A program made the position numbers and the translations under genes. Under the pieces are notes generated by a model, which was given only the letters and a program-made list of their open reading frames with translations, was not told the DNA's origin and made no database searches. Shown in pieces: positions 15,167 through 57,457 of a stretch of DNA of 64,000 nucleotides. Positions within the stretch are counted from its first letter, which is position 1, and every line of letters starts with the position of its first letter. Origin of the DNA: Fistulifera solaris (taxonomy: Eukaryota); the NCBI GenBank assembly GCA_030295235.1, contig AP026151.1, forward strand, positions 620,001 through 684,000, read 5' to 3'.

Positions 15167-15535
15167 TGCTGCAATGCAGGAAACGTGTATAAAGGTGGGT
15201 CTCTTTGTGTTTGATGTCCTTCTCACGATAGTAAGTTCATTATTTTCTATCTATAATGGACTAAAATAATAATGGATGATGCGATTTTTCTTCGGGTCGA
15301 GCCCGACAATAACTATGCGACAACAGATGCGCGATGCGGGTCGGCCATCTGTTGTTGCTGTTGCGGGATGGAACACTATCTGTAGAATGACAGTTTAGTA
15401 CCGGTTTGAGTACTAACGCTGCTTTGTCATCGCTCTCTGCTCGAAAGCCGCACTGCAAAACGATGTTTTCTTCGACCGCAATAACGCGAAAGTCTGTCCT
15501 CATTCTTCTCAGTACGAACGGAACACAAAGAGAAA

Positions 15536-16977
15536 ATGACTTACACAATCAAACGCCTCCGAGAGGAAGGGCTTTTTGCCTCAGCAACTTGGACGGCGTC
15601 GAAAGTCTTGATGTCTTCTGGGCGGAAGTCAACAAGGTTGCACGGCTCTACATTGAAGATACGGGTGCTTACGTTGCACCCACAAGAACCAAAACGTACA
15701 AAGGAGAGTTTATCGGCTTTACTTGTCTACGCAACGGAGACTATTTAACGAGATTGGCATTCGTCGGAAATCTTGATGATGATATCGCCTTGCTGCGCTC
15801 TGTGGCCATTCGAGTCCTTTGTCTTCCAGAAACAAACCCCCAAAGCATGGAACTACGAGGAAATATTACACATTTAGGTAGACCCGGGGACATATATGAT
15901 CACTTGGCTCTCACGACAGAGCAATTGCGACATATCATATGCGCCTTTCCATCGCGACAATACACTTTTCGTTTTTTGTGCTTCACTCCAAAACAATCTG
16001 TGGAGCTCGTTTCGCATCGGAAGTTTGCCATTGAAGTGCACTCGTGTCAGTTCGAAGATAAAGGTCAAGCGATGGTAGATTGGCTGGAAAAGCAAAACGG
16101 GGCGGAAATTATTGATTCTTGCTATTTTCCTGACTGCGACTGCGTCGAAAAGATTCTCAAGTTTTTGAGCCGTTCCATGTATCCCGTGTTCGAAAAGCTA
16201 TATGATCTTACTGGTAGAGCGGTTTTCGTCCCTGAACTATCTCACTTAATTTCGGCAGCAAACATTAAAACGGTAATGGCGGATATTCGTTTCTTTTCTT
16301 GTTGCGATGGCTGGCGAGCACCCTTACTAAAAGCCCTCCGTGAGGGAACGTTCCGACCACAAACTCTCGAAATATGTTTCAGCTCCCACCGTATTTTTGA
16401 CGAAGGTGATATTCCTATTATCGGCAAGGTCGTCCGCAAGTTGTTGAAAGCAATATCATCTCCCGACTGCACCTTGAAAGAACTTCATTTAAAACATTTC
16501 GAATTCACCGAAATCGCCCACGACTTTGAAAGGTACTTGCTGAATATGCTGCAGACGAATGAAAGGCTTGAAGTGCTGGGTGTTTATAGCACTCTTGCGA
16601 CGTTGGAATTTCCACAGATAAAAATCATGGATGCCGCAACCAAACATCCGCGTCTTCGGAAGATGTGTTTCTATCCTCCGACTTCTCACGACCCACCAGA
16701 AGTAGGATACGCCGAACCGTTCCAAGTGTGGGTGCAGAAAAACCGTTGTCACATCATACAGTTCAACGACTTCACTCACTCCGATAAGAAACCCTATCGC
16801 TCCAAGTGGCAAAATGCAGTCTTTGCTGTCTTCACGTCCGAGTTCGACGCTCTCCAACAAGTGGAGGACGACAAAGCCCGCTCCTATTTACTGGCAACGG
16901 CTATTGCGATATTCCAACAGATGCCGGATCGGATCTACAACCTTTTGACCGGAAATCTCGATGTTTTTGCGAATTAG
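15536..16977 (+). CDS. 'MTYTIKRLREEG' family RNI/LRR-like protein, paralog a (1-nt homopolymer frameshift at ~15575)
   Basis: Shared N-terminus and motifs LKELHL, NxxLxVLGVY, HPRLRKxCFYPP and PDRIYxLL with 7 other copies in the window. Confidence 0.8.
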
Positions 16978-17375
16978 TTACAGAGTCGTTCGCTTTCTCG
17001 TCTCGTGAATGTTAATTGCCAGCGCGCCTAGAACGACTATGTTGCAGCGACTCAATAACAACAATGCGGTGGAAGCTTTTTAACCTCACAAGATTTGTAC
17101 CCGTAGCCAAAGATGAAACTCCCTTGGCAGAGGTAACGATGACTATAATGTTGTGAGCCCGCTAGATAAGTCTTTATTTTACTCCGTAGTCATTTTACCA
17201 ATGATTTTTACTCGTGATTGCTGTTGCTCAACGAAAAGAGCACTCTATCTGTAGAGGGACAATTGAGTACCGGTAAGTCGAGTCACTGTGCGAAATTAGA
17301 ATGTCATTGTCATTGCTCGGCTTGAAAGCTGTAGGCCGAGATCGAGATGAGTGCGAACAAGAACAAATAATACAA

Positions 17376-17825
17376 GTCAAAAATGTCTTTCGCACGTTGG
17401 CATGACTTTCGCACCTTCAGTACCAAATAAATCATAAAATCTACAAAAATTGCCATATAACTTTTTTTAACGGAACATATCGATTGCTTTTAATTAGAGC
17501 TTTCCAAAACACCACGATTTGTTATTAACAGACAAAAACTCGTTGAGTTATTTAGCGAAAACTTAAGGAACCGGAAAAAGTGGGGTAAATTTTTTCACGT
17601 AGAAAAATGTACGGTGCCCTACGGCACCACTTTCGCACGTTCGACCTCTTTTTGAAATGTAAATATCAGCCCGAAAACGATAGATATTTAGATATTAAAC
17701 ATTTTAATATGTTTTTTAAACGTTTAGGCTGTATTTATGAAAAGAACAAGCGAAAAGTAAAAAAAATGATTGTTGTATGACCTTTCAAAAACAGGGTAAA
17801 TGAACGTGCGAAAGACATTTTTGAC
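17376..17825. mobile_element. AT-rich MITE with 23-bp perfect TIR; superfamily unresolved
   Basis: GTCAAAAATGTCTTTCGCACGTT at 17376-17398 and its reverse complement at 17803-17825; internal copy of CTTTCGCACGTT at ~17630. True ends may extend a few bp to flanking TA. Confidence 0.75.
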
Positions 17826-17930
17826 CTCCGTGGTATTCATTTTTTCATCGACCGCAACACGAAAGCAAACAATAACCTTTGCTCTTCCAGTTTCCTCATT
17901 CCCCTTATTCTTCACAAACAGAAAATAAAG

Positions 17931-19522
17931 ATGACTTATACAATCAAGCGCCTTCGAGAGGAAGGGCACTTCCGCTTGAGGAACTTGGACGGCGTGGAAA
18001 GTGTTGACGTGTTTTGGGCGGAAGCCCTGAAGGTGAAGCGTCTTTATATCGACGACACGGGTGTTTACGTCGCTCGTGCCAAAGACCAAATGCCAGAAGA
18101 ATATGTTGGCTTGAAATGTCACCGCAATGAGGACTGCCAGACGCGATTAGCATTTGTGGGTCAACCTGATGATATTACGTCGTTGCGATCCGTGACATTT
18201 CGTATCCTTTGTCTACCCGAAACAGATCAGCCCCAAAGCATGCATCTCGCCGGAAACTCATACACCCCCGGAAGACCCGTGAACGAACGCGATCAGCTGA
18301 TTCTCACACCTGCACAGTTGCGGTATGTCATTTGTATCTATCCGTCGCGACGATTTGAATTCAGTTACATGGCATTTAATGGGGACCAATCGGTGGAGCT
18401 TGTATCTCATCGGAAGTTTCAAATTGACCTTTTCCACTGTCAATTTCTTGATAAGGGTCGGGAAATTGTCAAATGGCTGGAGAACAGAAACACATCAGAG
18501 GTTTTTGATTTCTTCGATTTTTACTCTTGTGACTGTATCGAGGGAGATCCTAACGTTCTTGAGCCGCTCCACGCACCCAGTGTTCAAGAAACTCTATGCA
18601 AAAGAACGTGATGTACCTTCTCGAATATCTCCTTTGGTTGCTGCAGCAAATGTTACAGCATTGGTAGTGAATATTCGCTTCTTCATTTATGACGAACAGT
18701 GGAGAGCACCAATTGTAGAGGCTATCCAGCGATGGAACGTTTCGACCAAAAAGCCTTGAAATAGATTTCAGATGCCCGCTAATTCGCGTCGATTTTGACC
18801 GAAAAGAATGTCAGACTATCGGTAGTTTCCTTTCGAACTTGTTTGAAATCATGTCGGCTCCCCCAATGCAGCGTTGAAAGAATTGCACTTGAATCATTTC
18901 AATGTGTACGGCATCATGCAGAACTTCAAAAAGGACTTGGATTACATGCTGGAGAACAATCAAAGCCTTGTTGCGCTGGGGAGTTTATAGTACTGGCGCC
19001 CGTTGAAGTTTCCGCAGATGAATTTCATCCTCCACGCTGCTGAGAATCATCCGCGTCTCCGGAAGATCTGTTTCTATCCCCCTACCGATGACCCACCCCA
19101 ATTGGCGCAAATTGATATCTATCAGATGTGGTTGCAACGAAACCTCTCGCGTGACATTCAGTTCAGAGACTTTGGTTACTCGGATCTGAAAGCCCATCTT
19201 CCAGCATGGCAGATGTTAGTCTTTTCTGCTTTTACAAATTATTGCTATTACCACGGCTTCCACCGGATTCGGGACGAAAGAATCCGCTCTGATTTACTTG
19301 TAAAGGCACTTGCCACGTCGTCATATGCCCGATCGGATTTATTACTTGCTTTCCAAAAATCAGGATCTAATTGCGAAGCAAGCTGAAAAGGAGCAATTAT
19401 TGCTCTGCTTGAAAACTCGTGAAAGAGATAATGCAAACTCCGTAGCAACGAATCTTCAAGCAACTCGTTTATACTTTTGTGTGATTAAGTTTTCATCTTA
19501 TCTTGACAGATGCAGCCAATAG
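17931..19522 (+). CDS. 'MTYTIKRLREEG' family paralog b (multiple frameshifts; error or pseudogene)
   Basis: ORF pieces 17931-18611, 18325-18759, 19003-19386 and 19310-19522 are colinear with intact paralogs. Confidence 0.7.
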
Positions 19523-20138
19523 CATTCCGCTCTAACTCTCTAGGTAGATGATTCAACTCGGAACCCTTAACGCTTATTCGCCTTATATATGATTGACCAA
19601 TGCATGAACTTTTTACTGAGTTGAAAAATAGACTAGACTTATTTCAGAGTCGTTTGCTTTAGCCTGTCGCTTCTTTGTCTCGTCAAATGTTGATAGCTAG
19701 CTACGCTCTAAAAGGAGATTTTTGCAGTGATTTCTACAAAACTAGTGTGATGTAAGTCTATTTTGCCCTACCAGGTGTGTACCCTTAGCTAAGACGAAAG
19801 CCACTCGGCATCTGTAACCTCTTGCTGTAACCTTATTTTCAGCCCGCGTGAAAGTCTTTATTTTAGTCCCTTTTACTCATGATTGATTTTGTATAAAAAT
19901 AGTCAAGTACAGTACTGTACTGTACCTGGTAAACCTTACTTGTACCGGCAAAGCGTAAAGACGATGCGATGATTCACTCTAACAGAAATTGTACTTGCTT
20001 ATTTTTGTCATTGCTGTTGCTCGCGTGTCTGCTCGAAAAGCGGACGAAAGAAATCAAAATAAATTTTCATCAACAGCATTTTACTGGCAAAAGCACGAAA
20101 GCCTTTGCTCTCCTCATTCTCTACAATCGAAAGTAAAG

Positions 20139-21571
20139 ATGACTTATACAATCAAGCGCCTTCGAGAGGAAGGGCACTTCCGCTTGAGGAATTTGGACGG
20201 CGTCGAAAGTCTCGACGTCTTTTGGGCGGAAGCCTTGAAGGTTGAGCGTCTTTACATCGAAGACACGGGTGTTTACGCAGCACCCACAAAAACTAAACCA
20301 TCCGAAAGAGAATTTGTCGGGTTGAAGTGTCACGACTTTTCCACGGAACTACAATTTGTGGGAAAACTTGATGATATTTCGTCATTGCGATCCGTGACAT
20401 TCCGCGTCCTTTGTCTGCCCGAGACAGATAACACCAAAACAATGAGTTTCTCTAAGAACTCATACAATCCCGGCGAGCCCCCCGAACGAGCGCGATCAAC
20501 TGATTCTCACACCTGTGGAGTTGCGCCATCATTTGTGCTGATCCGTCGCGACGGCTCAAATTCAGGTATCTGTCCTTCAACGGCGATCAATCGGTCGAGC
20601 TTGTATCTCATGGGAAATTTCAAATTGAACTTTTCGACTGTCGATTCCTTGATAAGGGCAGAGCCATTGTGGAATGGCTGGAGAACAGAGACACATCAGA
20701 AGTTTTCGATTATTTCGATATGAAGTTATGTGACTGTATCGAGAAAATCCTAACGTTCTTGAGTCGCGCAACACACCCCGTGTTCAAGAAATTCTATGCG
20801 AACGAAATTGATGAACCTTCTCGACTCTCTCCCTTGGTTGCGGCAGCAAATGTAACAGCATTGGTAGTGAATATTCGTTTCTTCATTTATGACGAACATT
20901 GGAGAGCACCAATCTTACAAGCAATCCGTGATGGAACGTTTTGACCCCAAAGCCTTGAAATAGATTTCAGATGTCCGCCCATTCACGGCGACTTCAACCG
21001 AAAAGAATGTCAGGCAATCGGGCGATTCCTATCCAAGTTGCTGGAAATCATGGCGTCGCCCCAAGTGCTCGTTGAAAGAATTGCACCTCAATCATTTCAA
21101 TGTGTATGGCGTCATGCAGGACTTCAAAAGGACTTGGAATACATGCTGGAGAACAATCAAAGCCTTGTTGCACTGGGGAGTTTATAGCTTGGCGCTCCCC
21201 CATTGAAGTTTCCGCAGATAACTATCCTGCATGCAGCATCGACACATCCCCGTCTTCGGAAAATCTGTCTCTACCCTCTTACGGACGAGGCACCGCGATC
21301 TGTAGATATTAACTTCATTCAGTTTTGGTTGCGGAGAAACCAGTCACGCGACATTCAGTTCAAAGACTTTGGTTACTCGGACCTGAGAGCCCATCTCCCA
21401 ATGTGGCAGAAGATAGTCTTGTCCGCGTTTACAGAAGATTTCGACGCTCTTCGGCAGGTTGAGAACGAAAGATTCCGCTCTCATTTACTTGTGATGACAC
21501 TTGCCAAGTTTCGTCATATGCCGGATCGAATCTATTGTTTGCTTTTCGGAATCAGGATCTTATTAAGCTGA
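20139..21571 (+). pseudogene. 'MTYTIKRLREEG' family paralog c, probable pseudogene
   Basis: In-frame TGA at 20942-20944 replaces the Arg of the conserved GTFRP motif (CGA in paralogs a and b); several frameshifts as well. Confidence 0.6.
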
Positions 21572-22042
21572 AGAAACGATTATTGCTCTTATCAAAAATA
21601 GTAAAAAAAAGATATATTAGAGCAACCAATTCTTGAATATTCGTGTTGTGACAAAAAGTTTTCATGTTTCTTGACAGGTCCAGCCAATAACATGTCAGGC
21701 CGGCCTAACTCTAGCTAGGTCATCAACTCAGTACCTTTACCGCCCATTCGTCTTATACATGATCGGCTAATGCATTAACTTTTGAAAGACCACATAGACT
21801 AGACGACAAAATTTTGAGCTCTTAAAACTAGAAACGACGACAATACCAGGTAGAATTTGACAAGAACGTTCATGGAATCCAAAAATCGGTCTCCTTGATT
21901 TGTTGAACCGTTGCGACAGTTTTATGTCTTACCCGGACAATGCGACGAAACATCGTCACGCGAAACCGCTCATTTTTCGCATTGCTTCAAACAAAAATCA
22001 AAAAGTCCAATTTAAAAGTTAGTGCAATCGACTTACTGCAAA

Positions 22043-23475
22043 ATGAGTTATACCATCAAAAGACTCCGAGAGGAAGGTCTCTTTGCCTGAGTAGTTTAGA
22101 CGACGTCGAAAGCATTGACGTTTTCTGGACGGAAGCGAACAAAGTTGAGCGTCTTTATATCGAGGATACGAATGTGTATGTTGCACCTAGAAAGATCAAG
22201 ACATCCGAAGGAGAATTCGTCGGTTTGAAATGTCATCGCGACGGTGACTATTCAACGCAATTAGCATTTGTGGGTAACGTGGATGATATTGCGTCATTGC
22301 GATCCGTGACATTCCGTGTCCTTTGTCTTCCCGAGGCAGGTAGACCTCAAAGCTTAGCATTTTCATTAAGCTCGTACAGACCTGGTAGACCTGTAGGGAC
22401 ACGCGATAACGTACTGCTCACAGCTGAACAATTGCGGCATATAATATGCGCCTATCCATCGCGGTGGTTCCGTTTCAGTGATTTGTCTTTCAATGCCGAG
22501 CAGTCTGTAGAGATTGTCTCTCATCGAAAGTTCAAAATTGAATTCTTCGACTGCCGATTTGATGACAAAGGTCGTGCAATTGTTGCTTGGCTGGAAAACA
22601 GAAACGAAACAGACATCATGGAATGTTGTGATCTTTTCCGTTGCGATTGTTACCCGGCAATTCTCAGGTTCCTAAGCCGGTCGATGTACCCCGTTTTCAA
22701 AAGGCTCTACTTGGACTCAATTGACATTCCTTCTCAACTAACCCCCTATGTTGCAGCAGCAAATGTCAAGTCCTTAGATGTGGATATTCGTTTCTTTGTC
22801 TGTGACAAGGGTTGGAGGGCACCACTACTGCAAGCGCTTCGAGATGGAACATTTCGTCCAGAGATACTCGACATCAGTTTCATTTGCGCGCCATGTCACG
22901 GAAAAATGAACAAAGAAGAAATCGCTGTTGTCGGTGAATTCTTACAAAAATTGCTTGCAGCATTATCCTCACGAGAGTGCTCTTTGAAAGAGTTGCACTT
23001 GTGGGATTTTAATTTAAGAGGCATCGGACAAGAATTCAAAGATGATTTGATTGTCATGCTCCAGAAAAATAAAAGCCTTCGAACACTCGGTGTTTATAGC
23101 ACCATGGGTCTGTTCAGTTTTCCACAGATGAGTATTCTGAAAGTAGCAGCCATGCATCCACATCTTCGGCGACTCTCTTTCTATCCCCCGACTTCTGATC
23201 CACCCGTACCCAGGCCTTTCCAGGTATGGGCGAAGAAAAATCATTTTCATGATATCCGATTCGAAACTGCACGCGACCCAGAGATGAGAGTTCAACGCGA
23301 GAAGTGGCAGAACGCTCTCTTTTCTCTTTTCACGGGGGAGTATGCGGCTCTCAAGCAAGTCCAAGACCAAAATGCCCGATCTTATTTGCTCTTGACAGCT
23401 CTTGCTACATGTCGCCAGATGCCTGATCGAATTTATTACTTGTTGTCCGACAATCAGGATATTGTTGCGAAGTAA
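22043..23475 (+). CDS. 'MTYTIKRLREEG' family paralog d (1-nt frameshift at ~22083)
   Basis: ATG AGT TAT ACC ATC AAA AGA CTC CGA GAG GAA GGT at 22043, then a long open frame to 23475 with all family motifs. Confidence 0.8.
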
Positions 23476-38208: not shown

Positions 38209-39633
38209 TCATTCATTCTTAATTCCTTGACATACCAGTACAGAACGCCACATATTGCGGCGCAACAGATAATACAGGCGATCCGGTATGGAATGACAAG
38301 TCCTTAGTGCCGTAACTAGCAAATGCGAACGGATTCTCAGGTCTCTCGCACATAGCATCGCGTCCATTAGCATCGTAAAAACCGAAAAGACGGCAGATCG
38401 CCACTTGGCCAAATGCGGCTGTTTATCGCCATCGCGATAGTCGTTGAATTGAATGTCGATGGAACGATTGTTCTCCATCCACAGTCGAAAGGGTCTTCCT
38501 ATTTCGGGTGGACGGGTCGTCGGAGGATAGAAACAGATCTTCCGCAGATACATATGTTCGCGAAGCCGCGTTCAGAATCTTCATCGCCGGAAACTCCAAC
38601 GGCGAAATGTTGCTGTAGATGCCCAATACTTCCAAGCTGTGGCTGTGTTGTAGCACGGTCAGTAACGACTGTTCCAAGTCGCGGGCGATAATGCGCATTG
38701 AGATTTGCGCCAAATGGAGTTCTCTCAAGTTACAGTACGGCGAAGCGATCGCATTCAGCAGTTGACCCATATATTGACCGATGGTACGAGCTTCGTCCCG
38801 ATCCCAATTGCAAAACCGGGAGATTTCCAAACTGCGGGGTCGGAAGGATCCATTCCGAAGAGCCTGCAAGACGGGTGCTCTCCCCGCTCTGTCACACACA
38901 AAGAAGCGAACATCCACCACCAGGGCACGGACGTTCGCTTTCGCAATCAAAGGAGAAAGTTGTGGTGCGACTTCGGGTCAGACGAGATACAATCGTTCAA
39001 AAACAAGATGCTTCGCACGGCTGAAAAATTCCACCAGTTTTGCGACACAATTGCAACGTGGAAAATAGGCCGAAGGAAAGACTTCTTTTCCATTTTGACG
39101 TTCTAGCCAGTCCACGATAGCTTGACCTTGGTCCTCGAAATGACAGTCGTACAATTCGATTTCGAGCTTTCGATGAGACACCAGCTCAACCGATTGCTCG
39201 GAATTGACGGAAAGTTCACCGAAACTATACTTTCGCAGAGGATGATTGCATATGATGTGTCGCAATTGCTCCGGTGTAAGCATCAAGGAGCTTTTAGTGA
39301 ATACTGAGCTTCCTTGGATCTCCAACTGTTGCGGATCTGTATCGGGCAGAGAAAGAACACAGAAAGCCACCGAGCGTAATGACGCAATATCATCCACTTT
39401 ACCCACAAACTGCAACCCCGTGTCAAAGTCCTCGTTGCGGCGGCACCTCAAGCCGACGCATTCTCCTTCGGATATTTTGGTTTTTGAAGGTGCAACATAA
39501 ACACCCGTATCTTCGATATAAAGACGTCAACTTTGTTTGCTTCCGTCCAAAAAACGTTAAGACTTTCGACGTCGTCTAAACTACTTAAGCAAAAGTGTCC
39601 TTCCTCTCGAAGGCGTTTAATCGAATAACTCAT
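38209..39633 (-). CDS. 'MTYTIKRLREEG' family paralog e (several frameshifts)
   Basis: ORF pieces 39448-39633, 38978-39451, 38423-38950 and 38209-38553 are colinear with the family. Confidence 0.7.
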
Positions 39634-39973
39634 GATGATTTCAATGATTAGAGAAGTAATAGTTCATTGAAATGAAAAAGGAGCTCATGTTTTTGCGGAT
39701 TGTGTTTTCGTGCATCTCGCATCGCATTTTTTCTTTTTGTCATTGCGGTGGGGGTTGGTATTCTACTACGTACTACAGACAGGAATATGTCGCAACGGCA
39801 TGTGATACTAGGGACACCAATAATTCTTTGTCGTGGTCTCTCTGGCCCAAAATGATGTGTTTTTGGAAAGTGATGCGATAAGACAAGGGGGATAAATGGT
39901 AGAGGCAACAAGTTATTACCTAAATTTACTAGTCCGATCTAACTCGGTCCGACAAACTTTCATCTGTACGCAT

Positions 39974-41425
39974 TCAAGAAACACAAGAGCCTAAGGTTTC
40001 TTTGGCGAAAACATCTTGATTCCCAGAGAGCAGATAATAGATCCTGTCAGGCATCCTATGCCAAGTTGCAAGCGCCGTACCGAGTAAATACGAGCGAATT
40101 CTTTCGTCTTCTACTTGTTTAAGGGCGTCGAACTCTCTCGTGAATATATCAAAAACGGCTTTTTGCCACTTCTGTCGCTGTACAATCCTGTCGGGCCAAC
40201 TGAAATCATCGAAGCGAATATCATGCGAGCGGTTTCTTTGCAGCCACACTTGGAACGGTTCGGATCGCCCGAGAATGGGTGGGTCACGCTTCGGCGGCGG
40301 ATAGAAACGAAGTGTTCGAAGACGCGGATGTTGTGCCGCAGCATTCAATATATTCATCTGGGGAAATACGAAAGGAGTCTCGTCACTGAACAAACCCAAA
40401 ACTTGAAGACTTGTGTTAGTTCGTAGCATATCCAACAAGTACATCGCAAAGAGTAGAGAAATGAGTGTCAAATCAAATTGTTTGAAATGAAGCTCTTTTA
40501 ACGAGCATTCAGGCGAAGACACTGCGTCAAGCAGTTTACGTAGAAATTTACCGATCGCGAGAACAGTGTCATTGTCGTATTCATATTTCCCATCAAGAAA
40601 GCTCACTTCGAGATTTTGCGGACGGAAAGTTCCATAACGGAGCGCTTTGAGGAGTGGTTCTCTCCAGTCCTTGTCGAAAAGGAAGAAATGAATATCGACA
40701 ACAAGGGTGTTCACGCTTGCTGCGGCAATAAGAGGAGAGAGTCGTGATGGCATATCTTGTCCGTTGAAGTAAAGGCGATCAAACACGGGGTACATGGCGC
40801 GATTCAGAAATTTGAGTATCCTTTCATTACAGTTGCAACCAGGAAAGCAACAAGCTTCCAAAATCTCCGTTTCTCTTCTTGTATTTTCCAGCCAGTAAAT
40901 TATTGCTTGACCTTCGTCATCGAATTGACAGTGGTACAGATTGACATCAAACTTTCGATGTGAAACAAGTTCAACAGATTGGTCAGGACTTATTGAAAAA
41001 CAATGGAAAGAATATGACCTCGATGGATAAGCACAGATGATGTGTCGAAGTTGCTCGGGCGTGAAAATCAATCTGTTTCGGGGGCTCGAATAATAGTCGT
41101 CTCCTATCTGCAGTTTGTGGGAGTCAATCTCCGGAAGACTAAGTACACGGAATACCACTGATCGAAGCGAATCGATGTCACCGCGTTCGGCAGCAAAAAC
41201 TAATGAGCGCGTCGTAGAATCACAACCACGGGAACACCTCACAAAACTGTATTCTTCCTGCATAATTTTAGTTTTTTCCGGTGCAACGAAAACACCCGTA
41301 TCCTCGATACAAAGACGCTCAACTTTGTTAGCTTCCGCCCAGAAGACGTCGAGACTTTCGACGCTATCCAGATCACGCAAGCAGAAGTGCCCTTCCTCTC
41401 GAAGGCGTTTGATCGAATAAGTCAT
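39974..41425 (-). CDS. 'MTYTIKRLREEG' family paralog f (intact)
   Basis: Uninterrupted ORF from MTYSIKRLREEGHFCL to PDRIYYLLSGNQD. Confidence 0.85.
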   Translation of the reverse strand: MTYSIKRLREEGHFCLRDLDSVESLDVFWAEANKVERLCIEDTGVFVAPEKTKIMQEEYSFVRCSRGCDSTTRSLVFAAERGDIDSLRSVVFRVLSLPEIDSHKLQIGDDYYSSPRNRLIFTPEQLRHIICAYPSRSYSFHCFSISPDQSVELVSHRKFDVNLYHCQFDDEGQAIIYWLENTRRETEILEACCFPGCNCNERILKFLNRAMYPVFDRLYFNGQDMPSRLSPLIAAASVNTLVVDIHFFLFDKDWREPLLKALRYGTFRPQNLEVSFLDGKYEYDNDTVLAIGKFLRKLLDAVSSPECSLKELHFKQFDLTLISLLFAMYLLDMLRTNTSLQVLGLFSDETPFVFPQMNILNAAAQHPRLRTLRFYPPPKRDPPILGRSEPFQVWLQRNRSHDIRFDDFSWPDRIVQRQKWQKAVFDIFTREFDALKQVEDERIRSYLLGTALATWHRMPDRIYYLLSGNQDVFAKETLGSCVS

Positions 41426-41744
41426 GGTGCTAAATGTCAATTTTAATGGTTGACGGAGAAAGGGATAATCACTTCGAGCATGGTGATAATAAGCTCTCGC
41501 GCGTCGTCGTATCGTGTATCGTGTTGCTGCAAAGGGCGTTAAAATTCTTCCTCCGTATTTCCATGGCAATAAATATTTTCGTGTGGGTTCAGAATAACGC
41601 AGTCCTGGGTCGTGGGTCCCGGGTAAAACTAACGCGAGCTTTTGTGACCAGCAGCGGTTAAGGCGGGCCTAGGTGTCACAAACAATCCTGCCGCTTTAAC
41701 TGATTCAAAAAAATGTTTTACTTTTTCAATAAACACGTTGTTTG

Positions 41745-42138
41745 TGATGAAAATACTAACGTACTGTGGAATCGAACCACAGAGCCAACCCAATCACGTC
41801 GTATTTCTACCCCGATCCATGATATATAAGCCACTCTGATTGACGTCCAGACCCTCAATCTGACATCCTCCCTGGCCTTATACTATCATGATCGTACTGT
41901 TTTGCCCTTCAGCCTCCTCGCTTGAGACCGCTTCAAGCCCTGTTCTTTTATCCTCCCGGCTTCACAGGAGTCGGCAACAAACTCACTCCGCCAGGGTTCG
42001 AACCCTGCACGTTACCATGATGAAAATACTAACGTACTGTGGAATCGAACCACAGAGCCAACCCAATCACGTCGTATTTCTACCCCGATCCATGATATAT
42101 AAGCCACTCTGATTGACGTCCAGACCCTCAATCTGACA
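41745..42138 (-). mobile_element. TRIM (terminal-repeat retrotransposon in miniature), 394 bp
   Basis: Identical 121-bp direct repeats 41745-41865 and 42018-42138 with TG...CA ends; flanking TGTTTG duplication. On the minus strand, PBS-like TGGTAACGTGCAGGGTTCGAACC follows the 5' LTR and PPT AGGGAGGA precedes the 3' LTR. The 152-bp interior is non-coding. Confidence 0.88.
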
Positions 42139-42360
42139 TGTTTGTACGAATGCCAAGAACATCTCCAGATATGACTAGAAATGATTAACTCGAATTATCC
42201 AAGAAAGCCTCATACTCACTTGAGCGCCTCCAAGGGAAGCACCTAAGTTAGGGCCCACGATGGAAGCTATCGCAGCTTAAGAAATTTGTTGTTGTCATGT
42301 AATTTATGGTTATTAGTTGTGGCTATACTAGCTCTGCTTCTGAATCAAGAAAAATACGTT

Positions 42361-43790
42361 TCAACAATATCGAGCAAGCAAGTCCTGATTCCCGCACAAT
42401 AAATGGTAAACTCGATCCGGCTTCTGATGAAAATTCCCCAGGGTGGTCGCAAGTAAATGCGAGCGGATCCTTTCGTCTTCTACTTTCGTGATGGCATCAA
42501 AGTCTTTCATGATGATCGCGAACACGGCTTTCCGCCACTTCCGGAGACGACGCCTGTTGCTCAATTCTTCTTTGTCTATGAACTGAATGTCGTGCGATCG
42601 GTTCTTCTGCGCCCACATTGGAAAAGGACCCGTTTGCCCGGGCTTCGGTGGGTTCCGCGTTGGGGGATAGAAACAAAGCTTCCGAAGGCGCGGATGTGCA
42701 GCGGCAGCATTCAAAATGCTCATTTGCGGAAACTGCAGACGAGAAACAGTGCTATAAACACCCAGTACTCGAAGACTTTTGTTTTTCTGCAACATCTCCA
42801 CTACGTTCTTTTTCAAATCGAGTGCAATGTCTGTTAAATTGAAAGCCCTCAGATGAAGCTCTTTCAGAGAACAGTCAGGCGACGAAAGAGCCTCGAGAAA
42901 ACCAGCCATGAACTCGCGGACCTCATCTATCTCTGTCGCTCTAAATGAATGATTGCCGGGAGCGAACGATATACTGAGGCTTCTCGGACGGAACGTTCCA
43001 TCTCGAAAAGCGCAAAGTAGCGGAGCCCTCTCATGCCTATAATCTTTGATGAAGAAGTCAATACTCGTCATGACTGTCATGACGTTTGCTGTAGCAACGA
43101 GCTGAGTAAGTCGAGATCCGATATCCTGTCCTCTCAGATAAAGCTTATCAAAGACAGGATACATGGAGCGGCCCAAAAACTTCAAAATATTTTCATGGCA
43201 ATCACAGCCATGCAAACAATAATACTTCAGAATGTCCGATTGCTCTCTGCCATTCTCCAGCCAATCAACTATCGCTCGACCTTTGTCCTCAAACTGACAC
43301 GAGTCGACATTGATTTCAAACTTTCGATGGGAAAACAGCTCCACAGATTGCTCGGCAGTAAGTGACAAAAATTGAAAGATTACCGTCGCAATGGAAAGGC
43401 ACAAATGATATGCCGCAGCTGCTCAGGAGTAAATATCAAACGATTTCTTTTGCTTAAAATGAATTTTCCCAGTATCTTCAAGCCTTGGGCATTATTTGTC
43501 TCTGGAAGACAAAAGACGCGGAAAGCCACGGAGCGAAGCGTCTCGATGTCACCACGTTTTCCCACAAATGCAATGCGCGTATTGTAATCATCGCCTCGGA
43601 AACACGAAAAGCAGGTTTGTTTGTCTAAGGCTTCGAAAAGATCAGGCGCAACGAATACATTCGTATCTTCAATATAAAGCCGCGCAACCTTTTTGACCTC
43701 CGCCCAAAAGACGTCAATATTTTCGACGGCATCCAAATTACTCAAACAAAAGTGCCCTTCCTCTCGGAGGCGCTTTATTGAATAAGTCAT
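42361..43790 (-). CDS. 'MTYTIKRLREEG' family paralog g (frameshift ~43390)
   Basis: ORFs 43380-43790 and 42361-43404 together give the full family protein. Confidence 0.8.
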
Positions 43791-44154
43791 GTTCTTTCTG
43801 TCGACGAAGACAACCGAGAAGTTTTGGCACGGATCATCGAATGAGCAATGACAACGAGCACGTCCATTCGAATGACACCGCAGTTTTCGCGTTATTCGTT
43901 TTGTTGCGTTTGTTGTGAAAGTGCGAGACGATGAAGCGGGAACCGGAATCTGTTTTCTACATAGGTTATATGATCGCTACGGTACTCAACATTGTAAGAA
44001 AAACTAAGGTTGCTACTACGTATACTTAACGCTAGCTCTCTAGTAAAATTGACTTTAAAACATTTGAACCGCAAAGTAAATAACGAGATCTTACGGTCCA
44101 GGTAAAGCTAATTAGATCTATCTGTAGAGAGAGTAACCAAAAACCATTCTGAAA

Positions 44155-45605
44155 TTATCTTGCGTAAGCATCCTGATTTGCGGTCAAAAGATAGTAAACC
44201 CGATCTGGCATCTGGCAAAAGTAGCTAGTGCCGTTACAAGCAAATGCGAACGAATCCTTTCGTCTTCCACTTGTTTCAGCACATCAAACTCCCGCGAAAA
44301 CACGGAAAAGAAGGCTTTCTGCCACTTCGAGAGATGGGGCTTTTTGTCTGGATGACCGAAATCTTTGAAATGTATGTTGTGCGCACGGTTTTTCTGCGCC
44401 CATAACTGAAAAGGCTCGTCTTGTCCTACTTCTGGCGGGTCATAAGAAGTAGGTGGATAGAAACAAATCTTCCGAAGGCGCGGGTGTTTGGCTGCAGCCT
44501 TCAAGATTCTCATTTGCGGAAATACCAACGGAGCGACTTCGCTATAAATACCCAATACCCGAAGACTCCTGTTATTCTGCATCATATAGAGCAAGTAGCT
44601 TTCCATGGTGCGTGATATATTCGTGTAATCATCATCAATATGTTTCAGATGAAGCTCTTTCACCGAACAATCGGGAGACGATATTGCTTCAAAGAACTTG
44701 GATAAAAACTTGCTGATCAGACGAAGGTCGTCCTCATCAAAGCCAAATAAGTCATTGGAAGAAAAATTTACTTCAAGGTTCCGTGGACGGAATGTTCCAT
44801 TCTGAAGAGCTTTGAGCAGAGGTGCTCTCCAACCTTCGTTACAGAGAAAAAACTTGATATCCACCATCAGCGTGTTGACGTTAGCTGCCGCAATTAACGG
44901 AGATAACGAAGATTTTGATTCGACATCTTTTCCGGTGAGATAAAGCTTATTAAAGACGGGGTACAATGAGCGACTCAAAAAGGTGAAAAGTTTTTCGACG
45001 CAATCGCATTGAGGAAAATAGCACGAGTCAATAATTTCCTTTTCGTTCCTATCTTCTAGCCAATCCACAATTGCTTGCCCTTTGTCATCGAACTGACACC
45101 AGTTTACTCCAATCGCAAACTTTCGATGAGATACAATCTCCACAGATTGCGCTCCAGTGAGTGAGAAGCGACTGAAAGTGTATTGCCGCGATGGATGGGC
45201 ACATATGATATGCCGTAATTGCTCTGTCGTGAAAAATAACTGCTTGTATCTGTCGCCGGGTTTGCTTGGAAGATAATCGATTCCGTCTAATTTCATACTT
45301 TGAGGATTTGTCTCTGGAAGACAAAGTATGCGGAATGCGACGGATCGGAGCGAATCGATATCAGTAGGCTTACTTACAAACACTAAACGCGTTTTATAGT
45401 TATTGTCACGGCGACATGCCAAGCCTTCAAACTCTCCCTCTGATCTTTTGGTTTTTGTAGGCGCAACATATACATTCGTATCTTCGATGTAAAGACGCGC
45501 AACTTTGGTGGCTTCCGCCCAAAAGACGTCGAGACTTTCGACGGCGTCTAAACTACTCAGGCAAAAGTGGCCTTCCTCTCGAAGGCGTTTGATTGTATAA
45601 GTCAT
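44155..45605 (-). CDS. 'MTYTIKRLREEG' family paralog h (1-nt frameshift near the C-terminus)
   Basis: 473-aa ORF; the alternative frame supplies QMPDRVYYLLTANQDAYAR*. Confidence 0.85.
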
Positions 45606-45700
45606 GTTTTTTTATATTCTTTGTTCCTCGACGATGGGACAGACTAAATTGCATTGCATGAAGGATTTCAAGTTTTGAGGTCTTCTCATTGCGTTGCCTG

Positions 45701-50759: not shown

Positions 50760-51306
50760 TCGTTTTTCTCGTCTGTGTATTTCGTCTCGTTTTCCCTGTA
50801 TTGTGTTTCCCGGAGTAGCGATTTGAAATGATTCAACCGCTCTTTGTTATATGCCAAGTGTTAAGTAGTGATAATTGTAGATGATGCTTTGAAAAAATCA
50901 GTTCTATAGCTATTAAGTGCCTCTCCTTAGTTTTCTTCGTAACGTCGTCGCTGTTATTGTGTATCGTATCGTATCGTATTGTATCGTCGTGTTTTGTCGA
51001 AGCGCAAGGTGACTTTTAACACAATAAGCGTCGTGCTTTCACATTCATCCGTATTTATTGGAGATCTCTTGACAGCAAATCTAGTTCTTCAATGCTTTTT
51101 AATCTTTTTACTCTCGCCTAGACTCGTCCTCTCTCCGACTTCTTCATGATGTGTAAACGTTAGTCTACCCGGTCTACGTGAGCGCTACTTACACGAATTT
51201 GTACCAGGGCAGTCGTAGAAACCTTGTCGGTCTGTCAGCCAGCGGTCAGTCCGCAGCAAGCCTTTTTTTCGCACTCTCGCGCACAAAAACAGCCCAGTTT
51301 TACCAA

Positions 51307-51570
51307 TGTTGGAAAGGCAGCGCGAAACGAAGTTTTGGACAAGTATTCACGGTGTGACATCGGACGACGTGTCTGGCAGTGAGACGGATGGATGGACGGT
51401 AGTTGGAAAGAAAACGCAAACCACGAAAGGCTATTCGCGTCAGTCGAGACGAACGAAAGAGCGTGATGAGAAAGAGGACACGATGCGCCGCTCTTCTCAC
51501 TTTTGTTTTAATGGTTAGCCAATCGTAATAGTATTGCAACTCGTTGTGAATAATTCGCGTAGTTTCAACA
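51307..51570 (+). repeat. 5' LTR (264 bp)
   Basis: Direct repeat of 56396-56656. Confidence 0.97.
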
Positions 51571-51584
51571 CATTAAAACAAAAG
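51571..51584 (+). promoter_or_regulatory. Non-tRNA (self-complementary) primer-binding site
   Basis: CATTAAAACAAAAG directly after the LTR is the exact reverse complement of LTR 51500-51513 (CTTTTGTTTTAATG); no TGG tRNA-type PBS present. Confidence 0.8.
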
Positions 51585-51596
51585 AGGAACCGAGTC

Positions 51597-54500
51597 ATGT
51601 CCTCAGAAAAGCCCGACAGGACGGGAAGTGGGGGACACAAGCTGGACCCTGGAGGGGGAAAGCCAAACAACATGAAGAAGGGCAACCGCGGCGCTCCAGC
51701 GGTTGGGTCCAAGTTTACTGGGGCATGTGATGCACTGAAGGGAAACATCTTTGACTGTGGCACTCTCAATCAAGCCGATCTCTTCGTGAAGTCACAGAAA
51801 GCCCTGTCGATTTACATCGGAAGTGACAATAAGTTCAAAAACTCGAGCTATGTGGTGGCAGCTGTTGAGACGCTGGAGATCCCAACAATTCCTGCACCGG
51901 ATCCACTCCCTGCGGAATCGCCAGCATCGGAAGTGCGAATTTGGAACAAAATGGTGGATGCTATTGCGGAGCAAAGAATGGAGTTGATTGAAAATATTAA
52001 AAAGCTCTACTCGCTCGTTGAAGGACAATGCACCCCGATGCTAATTAACCGCTTTTCAGCAGATTCCTCTTTTCCGAGCATAAAAGCATCTCGCGAATGG
52101 AGTCGAGCTCTTGAAGCTCATCAAGAAGATTGCCTTTAGTGACAAGACGGAAAAGAGAGTCGCTTCTGCGCTCGACAATGCGCACCATCGATTCTGGACC
52201 TACTACCAAAAGAAAGGAGACTCTGTTGCGGCGTACATTGAAGGCTTTCAGAATCGTCTGGATGTGTTAAAGCACCTCGGAGGTACCATTGGTGATGACA
52301 TTGGATTGATAAATGAAGTTTGCCGTCGGAATAATGAATTAGTGGGGTCTCTGTCGAGCGAAGCATTTTGCAAGCGCGCCATGGAGGCATCGGAAGAAGC
52401 AATGGCAACAAGATTCATCAAAGGTGCAGACAGAGCTCGATACAAGCGGTTACAAGACAAGCTGGATGGTGACGTTCTTCAAGGCATGGACAATTATCCA
52501 AGAACCTTGCATGCAGCATACGAGCTACTGACGGCATGGACTCCGGACCGTGAGGATACGTCACGTTATGGACCAGCAAATGACGGTGCTGTATTCGTGC
52601 AGGATGGAGAGAACACTGAAAACGGCGTGGCGTTGGTCAATAGCGAAGGAAAAGGAAAGAAAAAAACCTGTTTCGCTGCAATAAGCCAGGACACACAGCA
52701 CCAAACTGTCGCGAGATACTTCCTGATGACAAGCCAGCCACCGATAAAGATAAAAATGACGAAGGAGCACAGCTTTTTAATGCAGGAGGAACTTTTGATG
52801 ACTACTCTCCCAGTGATGACGGCGACTATGGCTTTCAAATGCTGAATAATCGATACAATGGCATCCCGAGAAACTGGATTCTTCTGGACAATCAGTCCAC
52901 AGTGGACGTGTTTTGTAATCCAGGCCTGGTAACTAACATACGAAAGGTGGACAGGACTCTCACGGATCAATACAAATGCAGGAGTGGCAACGACCAACAT
53001 GATGGCGGACTTGCGAGGTTACGGAACGGTGTGGTTCTACCGTCAAGGAATTCGCGAATATACTATCATTGGCTTTAGTAAAGAAGAAGTTCCGTGTAAC
53101 TTTTGACAGTGCCGATGGAAATGCATTCATCCTTCACAAGGAAGACGGCAAGACGCGCAGATTCCAGGAGTCGGACGGTGGCCTCTACTATCTGGAAGTC
53201 CCTATGCATGGAACGGTGATGGTTAATACTGTAGCCGATAATGCGTCTAGGTACACCAATGAAGAGTATTCTCGTGCCTTACTAGCCCGCAGCATCCAAC
53301 GGTACAGGTAATCACACCACGGCACAAATGAAGCGCCTAGTGAATGCAAATTTGATCCCGAATTGCCCAATTACTGCACAGGACCTCCAAAATGCTGAAG
53401 ATATATTCGGAACGGATGTACAAGCCTTGAAAGGAAAAACAGTTCGTCGCGCTCCAATTGCAGTTCGGTTCAACGTTGTGAATGTTCCAGTTGAAATCAT
53501 GGATCGGCATCGTGAGATAACGCTGGCTGGTGATGTCATGTTTGTGAATCGAATCCCGTTTCTAATCACGATTTCACGCCACGTCAAGTTTGGGACGGTA
53601 GAAATGATTCGAAACCGAACAGCTAAAACACTTCTGAATGGACTAGAACAAGTCTATGGGCATTATTTGAAACGTGGATTCAAGATTACACACCTACTGA
53701 TGGACAATGAGTTCGAGCCGCTGCGTGGGGATCTCGCCGGCAATGAAGATTGAGCTTAATATCGGCTGCTGCAGATGAGCATGTGCCTGAAATAGAACGA
53801 TATGCGCACAGTCAAAGAACGAACACGATCGACATACAACGGTCTTCCTTTCAAACACATGCCACCACGTCTGGTAATCGAAATGGTCTATTTTAATGTT
53901 TTCTGGTTGAACTGTTTCCCTCGAGACGGAATTTCTGATACACTGAGTCCTCGCGTTGATCTCTGGGCAGCAGATTGATTATACCAAGCATTGCCAACTT
54001 GAATTTGGGGAATACGTGCAGACACATGAGAAACATGACAATTCGATGGCCCCTAGAACAGTTGGAGCACTTGCCTTGCTCAACTGGAAACGACAAGGAT
54101 CCTATTTTTTCTTTAGCCTTGCTACTGGGAAACGCCTCCACCGGAATCGATGGACCGCAGTTGCCATGCCTGAAGAAGTTATTGAAAGGGTTCATCTTCT
54201 TGCGAAAATAACCAAAATTGATGAGGGTCTTGAATTTGCTGATCGGTACAATCACACTGACCACGATGATCCTGAAGCAAGTGACGATGCTTCCGCTGTG
54301 CCCCATCCTGACAATGACGACGTCGTTAGCATTCCGAGTATCCTAACGCCGCAGGAGTGATGGCCGAGGTTGAGGTCGAGGGCCCACAGGAAGCAGAAAA
54401 CGAAAACGAAAATGAATTTGAAGAATATCAAATTGAAAACAACAATGAAGACGGAAATCTCGGTAACATGGACGAGGATGATCCCGCCAATGATGACCAA

Positions 54501-56553
54501 GTGGAGATCCCAGGAGTGGAAATTGCAGGAGTGGAAGCCGCAGGAGAGCCCGCAGCAAATGAAGAGAATGCTGACGAGGAAAGCGTACAGCCACATGGTG
54601 CAAATGACGAGGACCCAGGTCATAATGCCGTTGAGGACGAAATGGATGCGCTGATATGGCCCGGCGTCTTCACAGTTATAACCTTCGCCAACGCAAGCGA
54701 TTACGGACACCTGTTCCATCAATCAGCCGAAGTCGTTAACTCTGTCATGTTCACGCAATATCCCGTGGAGAAAGGCCTTAAGATATTTGGTGATCCCGGG
54801 AGTGAATGCCGTGGAGGCGGAACTCCGACAGCTAGATATCTGACGTGGCGTTATTGAGCCGGGAAGACGCTGGATCGCTGACACGTGAGGAGAAGCTTCA
54901 AGCGCCGATACCTGATGTATCTAAAGAAGAAAACGATGCGGCAGAATCAAAGGACGAGGATGTGCTGATGGAAGGAAACAGCGAACTTACATAAACAAAG
55001 AAGATGCTAGCTCACCAACTGTTTCCATCGAGGCAGTGTTCCTCTCATTCTTGATTGATGCGAAGAGAAAACGTGATGTTGGCATTATTGATGTACCAGG
55101 AGCTTTCATGCACGCGTTTATGGATGAACTGGTTCGAATGCGAATCTCGGGAGAAATGGTCCGAATTCTTGTAAAGATCAATCCGTCCAGATATGAGAAA
55201 TACGTTCACGACAGAAAGGGGGAGAACCTGTATTGTACGTGAGACTGAAGAAGGCGTTATATGGGACACTTCAGCGGCATACCTATTCTGGCAGTTACTT
55301 ACCAAAACATTGGAGAAATGGGGCTTTGTGATCAATCCATACGACCGATGTGTGGCCAACAAAATGATCAACGGCCACCAGTGCACAGTTCTTTGGCATG
55401 TTGATGATATAAAGATCTCGTGTCGCCGGAGGTAGTAACTGATGTGATTGCGAAGCTCAATGCGGAATTTGGGAAGGAAGAACCCCTTAGTGTCTCGCTG
55501 AGGAAAAGTTCACGAATATCTTGGCATGACAGTGAATTACGAAAACGAGGGGAAAGTGACAATCGGCATGACTGAATATGTCCAGAACATTATTGAAGAA
55601 CTGCCACCGGAAATGATCGGACACGCTGCTACGCCCTGCTGCGGCACATTTGTTTGAGGTGAACTCAGAGGACCCAGTATTGCTGAATGAAGAGGATAGA
55701 GAGCAATTCGTGCACCTGGTAGCAAAGTTGTTGTATTTGTGCAAGAGAGCGACCCGACTTACAAACTGCAATAGCGTTCCTCTGCACAAGAGTGAAGGCA
55801 CCCGACAAGGACGACTGGAAAAAGCTCACCCGTGTGCTCAAATATCTGCAATCGACAAGCGAAATGTCTTTGACTCTGGAAGCGGACAATTTAGAGGAGC
55901 TCCAATGGTGGGTTGATGCGTCATTTGCGGTTCATCTCGACAAAAGAAGTCACACTGGTGGTATCTTGATGCTTGGGCGAGGAGCTGTGTACAGCACGTC
56001 GACAAAACAGAAAATCAACACCACGAGTTCCACTGAAGCGGAGCTTGTCGGAGTCGGCGAGGTCATCGGTCAAATGTTGTGGACGAAAAGATTCATGGAT
56101 TGCCAGGGATATAACACCAAAGCATCGATTGTGTATCAGGATAATGACAGCGCCATTCTATTGGAAAAGAATGGGAAAGCCTCGAGCAGTAAAAGAACTC
56201 GGCACATTGACATTCGCTACTTCCACATCACGGATCGAGTTGCGGCGGGCGAAGTCGTGGTCAAATATTGCCCTACAGAAGAGATGTTGGCAGACTTCTT
56301 TACCAAACCTCTGCAGGGAAGTCATTTCATCCGTTTCCGCGATTTGCTGCTCAATCTCGATCGTCGCGTTGGAGAACTTCACGATCGCGGGAGTGTGTTG
56401 GAAAGGCAGCGCGAAACGAAGTTTTGGACAAGTATTCACGGTGTGACATCGGACGACGTGTCTGGCAGTGAGACGGATGGATGGACGGTAGTTGGAAAGA
56501 AACGCAAACCACGAAAGGCTATTGCGTCAGTCGAGACGAACGAAAGAGCGTGA
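51597..56553 (+). CDS. Copia gag-pol polyprotein (many 1-nt frameshifts in this assembly)
   Basis: Zn knuckle CF(R)CNKPGHTAPNC (~52670, frameshifted); protease ILLDNQSTVDVF; integrase GDVMFVN, MDNEF, HVPEIER; RT IDVPGAF, WHVDD; RNase H WVDASF, STEAELV, YQDN, ADFFTKPL. Confidence 0.92.
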
Positions 56554-56656
56554 TGAGAAAGAGGACACGATGCGCCGCTCTTCTCACTTTTGTTTTAATG
56601 GTTAGCCAATCGTAATAGTATTGCAACTCGTTGTGAATAATTGCGTAGTTTCAACA
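56396..56656 (+). repeat. 3' LTR (261 bp), preceded by PPT-like GCGGGAGTG
   Basis: Direct repeat of the 5' LTR, followed by TSD ACCAA. Confidence 0.97.
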
Positions 56657-56692
56657 ACCAAGTCCTCATTGTTTCATCTATTTTGAATCAAA

Positions 56693-57457
56693 ATGCAAGT
56701 TTTTAGCAAACATCAACATCTTTCATGCTCCCAGAGTCTGTCTGAGACGATTGTCGACACGCTACAGCGGCTGACAAGCCCTCTGTGGTCGTTGCAAGCC
56801 GAAAACGTTGGCGATGCTCCCTTTCTGCCGAATTGCGACGCGGATGTCGCTGAATCGTTGCTTCCACGTGAGTTCGATGTCGATAATGATGATCAAGTCT
56901 CTTCTTTCCTTTTATCGCTTACGGAGTCGAGTGAAGAATCGCTGTTGGCGGCGAAAACGACTCAGAAGGGAGTTTTAGAGACGAGCGCTCCTCAGGTGAC
57001 GCTAAACTCTTCGCTCAAGATTGCTTCATCCAGTCGTCCTGTGCTTCGTCGTGTACAATTTGCTTCGGATCTTGAGACAGTGAAAGAGATTCCCCATCAT
57101 CTTTCGTTCACAGCTGAGGAAAAGCGTTCGTTATATCGTGACCTTGAGACCTTGCAAGCTGAGAGCAATGTCATGTGTCAGGAGAGTGAATTTGAGCGCA
57201 ATCTGTATGGCGATGAATGCCTCGAGAATGTGTTGGAAGAAGACGCATATTTTCGTAATCGTCGTGGAGAATTGGTGCATCCAGCCCACTGGAGTGCTTT
57301 CACGGATGAGATCGTTGACAGTCTTGACGTCGACCCGACATCCGTACCCCCTGGTTTCGCGTCGGCAGAAGCCTACAAGAAGTATTTGTTCGAATACGAG
57401 CACTTCTATGATCATGACCTTCCGAAACATCGTTCGTTTCTATCATCCAACCATTGA
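56693..57457 (+). CDS. RVxF-motif family protein 'MQVFSKH', right-arm copy
   Basis: Intact 254-aa ORF; RRVQFA, EEKRSLY, GELVHPAHW; starts 36 bp after the Copia 3' LTR. Confidence 0.8.
   Translation: MQVFSKHQHLSCSQSLSETIVDTLQRLTSPLWSLQAENVGDAPFLPNCDADVAESLLPREFDVDNDDQVSSFLLSLTESSEESLLAAKTTQKGVLETSAPQVTLNSSLKIASSSRPVLRRVQFASDLETVKEIPHHLSFTAEEKRSLYRDLETLQAESNVMCQESEFERNLYGDECLENVLEEDAYFRNRRGELVHPAHWSAFTDEIVDSLDVDPTSVPPGFASAEAYKKYLFEYEHFYDHDLPKHRSFLSSNH

Follow-up and report, generated by a model that had tools for sequence, protein, structure and literature searches.

How does a retrotransposon begin reverse transcription when the bases behind its 5' LTR match that LTR itself? The question is raised by a locus of the diatom Fistulifera solaris. 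Within the window, by which we mean the whole 64,000 nt stretch of DNA that was analysed, a preliminary description had read the 14 nt directly after a 5' LTR as the perfect reverse complement of a segment inside that LTR, had seen no primer-binding site (PBS) of the TGG type, and had suggested that the element primes itself. Both observations were confirmed. The segments 51500-51513 and 51571-51584, separated by 57 nt, are complementary at 14/14 positions. The last base of the 5' LTR is followed at once by the 3' arm, and the window has no TGG at this site.

The element occupies 51307..56656 and is a Ty1/copia-type LTR retrotransposon of 5.35 kb (Table 1). The TG..CA termini of the LTRs and the 5-bp target duplication are those of Ty1/copia (Pseudoviridae). 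Alignment of the 5' and 3' LTRs gave 0 substitutions and 3 single-base gaps, hence the absence of substitutions that had been reported for them holds, with the gaps to be added. Empty-site contigs were found in runs X1 and X2, in which 51301 is joined to 56657, 5355 nt are skipped and 5 letters are shared at the joint. The empty and filled forms of the locus lie side by side in both runs, and the insertion is polymorphic or heterozygous. As the LTRs are free of substitutions and empty-site contigs exist, the insertion is recent, in agreement with the earlier view of its age, and still polymorphic. With LTRs identical apart from indel noise and a polymorphic insertion, the element is apparently active.

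Table 1. Features of the element and its insertion site, with positions in the window.
Feature	Position	Strand	Basis
Target-site duplication, left copy, 5 bp	51302..51306	.	Same 5 nt at 56657-56661
5' LTR, 264 nt, TGTTG...CAACA	51307..51570	+	Alignment with 56396-56656
Initiator-like TCA (part of CTCA), putative U3/R border	51497..51499	+	Directly 5' of the primer arm
5' arm, putative self-primer and putative first 14 nt of the transcript	51500..51513	+	14/14 complementary to 51571-51584; covaries in relatives
Rest of R-U5, 57-nt loop between the arms	51514..51570	+	
Predicted primer-binding site, self-complementary to the LTR, not of the TGG tRNA type	51571..51584	+	Flush with the LTR end
gag-pol polyprotein gene (CCHC knuckle, integrase, RVT_2 reverse transcriptase, RNase H region)	51597..56553	+	In-frame segments against P0001
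Polypurine-tract-like motif GGGAGTG, inside the coding frame	56389..56395	+	Directly before the 3' LTR
3' LTR, 261 nt, TGTTG...CAACA	56396..56656	+	Alignment with the 5' LTR
Copy of the 14-nt arm, start of the 3' R	56587..56600	+	14-mer search of the window
Target-site duplication, right copy, 5 bp	56657..56661	.	Matches the left copy and the empty-site joint

Related sequence is found on both sides of the insertion, thus the element sits between paralogous units: the upstream segment 49285-50847 is a duplication with a period of 656 nt and 89% identity, and 56660-57142, just downstream, is 72-75% identical to it. An ORF at 56693-57457 starts 36 nt past the insertion, and no Pfam family was found in it. 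Elsewhere in the window, 15525-22840 and 39335-45606 each hold an array of four direct repeats that have diverged to 61-93% identity and recur every 1.9-2.4 kb or so; they are probably tandem paralogous genes. An exact 122-nt duplicate spaced 273 nt was seen at 41745/42018 (within 41745-42139).

The closest named protein is P0001, a 1651-aa polyprotein which its source names a hypothetical protein of Fistulifera solaris. In-frame segments of the window are 81-94% identical to P0001 along the whole element, and the start of gag (51597-52136) shows 94% identity. Pfam detected zf-CCHC at 356-372 and RVT_2 at 1103-1334 of P0001, the latter with an E-value of 4.7e-16 and 59.6 bits (cut-off 31.6). 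For 13 frame pieces of the window itself the Pfam search gave only an RVT_2 match of 23.4 bits, which the frameshifts keep below this cut-off. An integrase was detected in P0001 neither by Pfam (E up to 5, including rve) nor by a profile search of PDB sequences. Modelling of the relatives' segment homologous to 560-890 of P0001 (n=11 relatives), on the other hand, yielded a retroviral-type integrase fold with pLDDT 78.7 and pTM 0.81, and the best Foldseek match of this model was the RSV integrase (4fw2_B, E 1.2e-8). The domains thus run from CCHC (356-372) over the modelled integrase fold (about 560-890) to RVT_2 (1103-1334), and since the predicted integrase lies upstream of RVT_2 the order is, on the strength of this model, that of Ty1/copia. 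The Tf1/sushi family of Ty3/gypsy does not accommodate the element, as its reverse transcriptase is of the RVT_2 type and the modelled integrase lies upstream of it. A search of viral contigs gave no match to the polyprotein patterns.

The gag-pol frame continues across the polypurine-like motif and stops 158 nt into the 3' LTR (U3), so that the last 55 or so residues of the polyprotein are encoded by the LTR (56396-56553). The sequence CAGGAGTG is conserved and precedes the LTR start TGTTG in 12/19 relatives scanned; in the polyprotein alignment this polypurine-tract-like stretch corresponds to the conserved residues ...HRSVL....

The quality of the assembly bears on how the window is read. 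Four sequencing runs, all in the form of contigs, were compared with it, and no run recorded as RNA was listed as containing the element. Short-read contigs differ from it by only 0-2 substitutions but by numerous 1-nt gaps (one match of 1663 nt has 28 gaps and 2 substitutions), and the gag-pol frame is cut into about 25 pieces. In view of the many 1-nt gaps against the short-read contigs, the three LTR gaps and the roughly 25 frame breaks are probably assembly errors. Two of the three LTR gaps take a C out of TTCGCG. Single-base indels relative to the short-read contigs of three runs occur throughout the window, e.g. at 52673, 52961, 54839-54861, 55218 and 55499, and given these, ORFs anywhere in the window may be falsely broken. 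The LTR-PBS region itself is spanned by a short-read contig of run X3, independent of the window assembly, which covers 51307-51584 with 1 substitution and 3 gaps.

Searching the 64-kb window for the arm 14-mer with at most one mismatch gave three sites, one on the plus strand of each LTR and one on the minus strand at the PBS; 0.08 were expected from shuffled controls, and none of 100 shuffles reached three matches. The PBS of 14 nt lies within a spacing of 26 nt between LTR and gag, which leaves 12 nt between the duplex and the gag ATG. Folding 51500-51584 gave a minimum free energy of -18.9 kcal/mol (z = -2.89). The loop of 57 nt compares with 91-107 nt in most relatives, and two hairpins that are conserved in the relatives are not evident in it. 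The hairpin which had been proposed for this loop is present as sequence, but it is imperfect and unused in the minimum-free-energy fold of 51500-51584.

A protein search based on gag yielded only two full-length relatives, hence metagenome contigs were searched for loci with the pol-anchored alignment A2, built from P0001 and another polyprotein with 51% identity to it; 78 loci were retained. Scans for tRNA genes found none in these loci or in the window. Twenty-four sources, namely 22 loci with a gag N-terminus, L066 with its LTR pair, and the window, were used for the LTR-PBS comparison, and 23 of them were testable; L049, with only 119 nt upstream of the LTR end, was left out. The flush complement is perfect in 22/23 testable sources (window included), with a length of 12-17 nt and of 14 nt in most, and the remaining source, L038, forms 13 pairs, interrupted by a 1-nt bulge within a T run. 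When the complement was counted from the base that follows the LTR-terminal A, 14 of 19 copies had a length of 14 nt, three had 15 nt, and one each had 17 nt and 12 nt; allowing one G.U pair extends the 12-nt complement to 14. For L024 and L027 it is 14 nt each, measured against their 3' LTR copies. In four sources (the window, L024, L027 and L066) direct repeats fix the LTR end without use of the pairing, and the end so fixed coincides with the PBS start.

The inverted repeat also stands out from its surroundings. When the 700 nt before gag are searched for perfect inverted repeats, the longest one, which is usually also the only one of at least 9 nt, places its 3' arm at the LTR end. A scan of whole contigs detected the LTR-PBS module in 21/79 sources, and in 14 of these 21 it is the only perfect inverted repeat of at least 11 nt with a loop of 15-200 nt in the whole contig. 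The 5' arm is located 27-137 nt upstream of the 3' arm among the relatives, and the LTR end reads CAACA in nearly all of them, with CAAGA in L038 and in a second module of L007. The reverse transcriptase cores of elements that share the module have 51-84% identity (median 62%). How large the lineage is can be seen from the protein search, in which at least 1381 polyproteins, out of 7999 candidates scored, match the RT-RH part of P0001 at E <=1e-20. Fistulifera solaris and Fragilaria crotonensis are the only organisms named among the 120 matches listed, and the few members with a known phylum in the protein atlas are Bacillariophyta.

Many of the metagenome contigs measure about 5.2-5.6 kb and represent a single element in circularly permuted form (L001, L005, L006, L009, L010, L012, L020, L036, L039 and others), with exact terminal overlaps of 107 nt in L006 and 127 nt in L012, and tandem arrays occur in L008, L013, L017 and L019. 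As these contigs are circularly permuted or tandem, the LTR sits between pol and gag in them; they may represent assemblies in which the LTRs collapsed, elements in tandem or extrachromosomal circles. The second, different LTR-PBS module of L007, at L007:3594-3769, has a 14-nt arm after TTCA, a loop of about 146 nt and the CAAGA end mentioned above, and adjoins a second weak gag-like match; the L007 contig is nested or chimeric.

Covariation across relatives, which had been named beforehand as a check, could be followed base by base. The 21 copies tabulated contain 19 distinct arms, and 265 of the resulting 266 cells are Watson-Crick pairs, with a single G.U; each of the 14 duplex positions shows 2-5 pair types, so the sequences differ throughout while the pairing is kept. 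Two tandem copies in L013, 93.6% identical, differ by a small replacement in the arm that is matched by an exactly complementary replacement in the PBS. When each PBS was compared with the LTRs of the other elements (342 pairs), matches were at most 8 nt except for the PBS of L007, which matches 12 nt in the LTRs of L004 and L006 and 9 nt in the LTR of L009. Shuffled LTRs (1,000 for each of the 19 copies, window among them, 19,000 when pooled) gave a flush complement of 12 nt or more in 3 cases and of 14 nt in 1.

A consensus structure was obtained with RNAalifold from an unfitted MAFFT alignment of 13 relatives, from which the window was excluded, and it predicts the long-range duplex along with two local hairpins. 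Compensatory changes are present in 22/25 of its pairs, and 88.8% of cells are paired against 66.3% in shuffles, none of 500 shuffles reaching 88.8%. The arms are AU-rich (41/266 cells are G:C pairs), which raises the background pairing (66% in the shuffles). Sliding the partner by 1-3 columns left 36-45% of cells paired. The R-U5 hairpins of the relatives occupy columns 20-41 and 75-96 of alignment A4 and show compensatory changes; the first (GGTT...AACC) follows directly after the primer arm, and the second lies in mid-U5 and has a TTAT-like loop. Taken over the 23 testable sources, the covariation strongly supports the earlier proposal that the PBS pairs with the element's own LTR, that a tRNA is not used, and that the primer would end at G51513, flush with the LTR edge.

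Directly before the arm, CTCA is found in 16/21 copies and the one-base variant [CGA][GT]CA in 3 more. A diatom initiator-like consensus, TCAH+1W, has been proposed by Kadono et al. (PMC4686930, from the part of the paper available). Position 1 of the arm is H in 19/19 distinct arms and position 2 is W in 17/19. Since CTCA and the start of the arm fit TCAH+1W, we infer that the transcript would start with the arm itself, at C51500 in the case of the window. The preliminary description was right in seeing an initiator-like TCA at 51497-51499, while the consensus puts +1 at C51500 rather than at the A51499 that it had named.

Taken together, the sequence patterns make it very likely that this lineage starts reverse transcription with the 5' end of its own RNA, in the manner of Tf1, and that the pairing serves priming. 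Of the other explanations, the one that fares best is that the inverted repeat acts at a different stage, for instance in packaging or dimerising the RNA, in regulating gag translation or in forming the transcript 3' end, and that priming takes an unrecognised route. We hold this to be unlikely. In its favour, the duplex is found 12 nt before the gag ATG in the window, conserved hairpins accompany it in relatives, and in fungal GalEa Copia elements the place of the PBS is taken by a conserved hairpin whose role is unknown (PMC5445492); a function of this kind, however, predicts neither that the 3' arm starts exactly after the LTR, as it does in all 23 testable sources, nor a fixed length of 14 nt. 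The distance from the 3' arm to gag, moreover, varies from about 0 to more than 600 nt among relatives, and a primer is needed at exactly the PBS site, with no other candidate visible.

It is less probable still that a host tRNA, a tRNA half or another cellular RNA is the primer and that the LTR-PBS duplex only presents the PBS, like the U5-leader and U5-IR stems of retroviruses. Precedent speaks for it, as tRNA-Met or half-tRNAs are used by most Copia elements according to the accessible part of PMC6317226. Against this, a cellular primer would hold its site constant, and here the PBS changes with the element's own LTR: the 19 distinct PBS sequences vary at every position in step with the LTR arm, which is the main argument against both tRNA and half-tRNA. 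The sites are not conserved between families and none starts with TGG (0/21 copies), and no second conserved candidate site is found in the stretch from LTR to gag, 26 nt long in the window. Chance or an artefact of the error-rich long-read assembly has the many 1-nt indel errors in the window in its favour, yet we regard it as negligible, for 0/100 shuffles gave the three occurrences, the run X3 contig covers 51307-51584 with its 1 substitution and 3 gaps, and the same architecture recurs in 22 independently assembled metagenome loci.

Under self-priming, the steps might be as follows. Transcription would start in the 5' LTR at 51500 or one base before it, directed by the conserved initiator-like CTCA. 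The RNA of 51500-51513 would fold back onto 51571-51584, either within one RNA or between two co-packaged RNAs. By analogy with Tf1, the element's RNase H would then cut at the 3' end of the duplex, near G51513, which assumes cleavage of an RNA-RNA duplex, and the freed 3' end near G51513 would lie opposite C51571. Of the 19 distinct arms, 11 are followed by a T that could pair with the LTR-terminal A, and in such elements the cut may fall one base further on. Reverse transcriptase would extend the primer through U5/R, copying 51570 backwards, and by the same analogy the exact LTR edge would be regenerated. Further, we speculate that plus-strand synthesis copies the primer, just as it does a tRNA primer, so that the PBS is rewritten from the arm in each cycle; such rewriting would explain both the near-perfect pairing and the free drift of the sequences.

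A wider reading, which we offer tentatively and as possible rather than probable, is that a species-rich lineage of diatom Copia elements has abandoned tRNA priming, with an origin independent of both Tf1/sushi and the plant TAR lineage, and that its initiator defines the primer (+1 being the first primer base), giving each family a private 14-nt primer and PBS. If this were true, the private primer/PBS pair would be copied anew every cycle, its complementarity would always be near-perfect and its sequence free to drift, and the elements would be immune to PBS-directed silencing based on tRNA fragments. If a major diatom Copia lineage does replicate without a host tRNA, self-priming, proven only for Tf1, would reach a second superfamily in a third eukaryotic supergroup. 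There would also be a practical consequence for annotation. Diatom genomes are shaped largely by Copia-type elements, as stated in the part of PMC2806351 available, and the LTRdigest filter described in the accessible text of PMC7466962 keeps only LTR elements with a tRNA-type PBS; pipelines requiring such a PBS would systematically miss elements of this kind, and the Copia content of diatoms would be under-counted. The covariation evidence is unusually clean, and as the 5' end, the initiator and the primer are predicted to the base in an apparently active element, the locus offers a testable system.

We found no report of diatom Copia self-priming in the literature covered, which excludes subscription journals, Repbase reports and some supplements. 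The main text of the CoDi paper (PMC2806351) contains none of the terms PBS (in this sense), primer binding, tRNA, self-prim or priming. For Copia elements in general, self-priming is not unprecedented, given the prediction made for the plant TAR lineage of Ty1/copia. In the accessible part of PMC6317226, self-priming is described as proven for Tf1, proposed for the Tf1/sushi group and predicted in silico for 12% of plant LTR elements, TAR (Houba, Osr-1) among them. The in-silico rule given there is a stretch of at least 10 nt that is complementary to the 5' LTR and starts 0-5 nt after the LTR; the window element has 14 nt, starting 0 nt after the LTR. TAR and the diatom element thus both belong to the Copia superfamily and both have, as far as the same source goes, a stretch after the 5' LTR complementary to that LTR, the hosts being a land plant and a diatom, respectively.

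Two other kinds of Copia element resemble the diatom element in part. Drosophila copia, Osser, Bryco and Bianca are primed by half-tRNAs and, like the diatom element, have a PBS that does not start with TGG. Their PBS, however, corresponds to an internal stretch of a single tRNA and stays the same within a lineage (PMC6317226, accessible part), whereas the diatom PBS is specific to the family and matches its own LTR. The fungal Copia element GalEa likewise lacks a tRNA PBS and has a conserved structured site directly after the 5' LTR (PMC5445492). That site is a local 9-bp palindrome which includes the LTR-terminal A, and no U5 sequence complementary to it was found by its authors (PMC5445492). 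The diatom site, in contrast, forms no palindrome, and its partner is a segment of the LTR that lies 27-137 nt further upstream (57 nt in the window); its pairing with the LTR and the absence of a local palindrome rule out assignment to the GalEa type of conserved hairpin site.

The closest mechanistic parallel is Tf1, which primes with the first 11 bases of its RNA and a cut by RNase H (PMC7175516, from the part available). As far as the sources available describe them, Tf1/Tf2 and the Tf1/sushi group have a PBS beside the 5' LTR that is complementary to the start of their own transcript, and they use no tRNA; the diatom element is alike in this, its transcript start being a predicted one. 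A cut at the duplex end would free the primer in Tf1, as is proposed here for the diatom element. The differences are several. Tf1 is a Ty3/gypsy chromovirus and the diatom element belongs to the other superfamily, with RVT_2 and the predicted integrase before the reverse transcriptase, and the duplex is 14 nt in the diatom element against 11 nt in Tf1. Unlike Tf1, the diatom elements have AU-rich arms that differ between families and a conserved CTCA directly before the arm. In Tf1, structured U5 stem-loops reportedly lie beside the primer duplex (the U5-IR), and in the 13 relatives of the diatom element two hairpins are predicted in R-U5 which are not evident in the shorter loop of the window. 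Self-priming has been shown by experiment for Tf1, and the diatom element is known here from its sequence alone. It would join a known class, the self-primed LTR retrotransposons, rather than represent a new mechanism.
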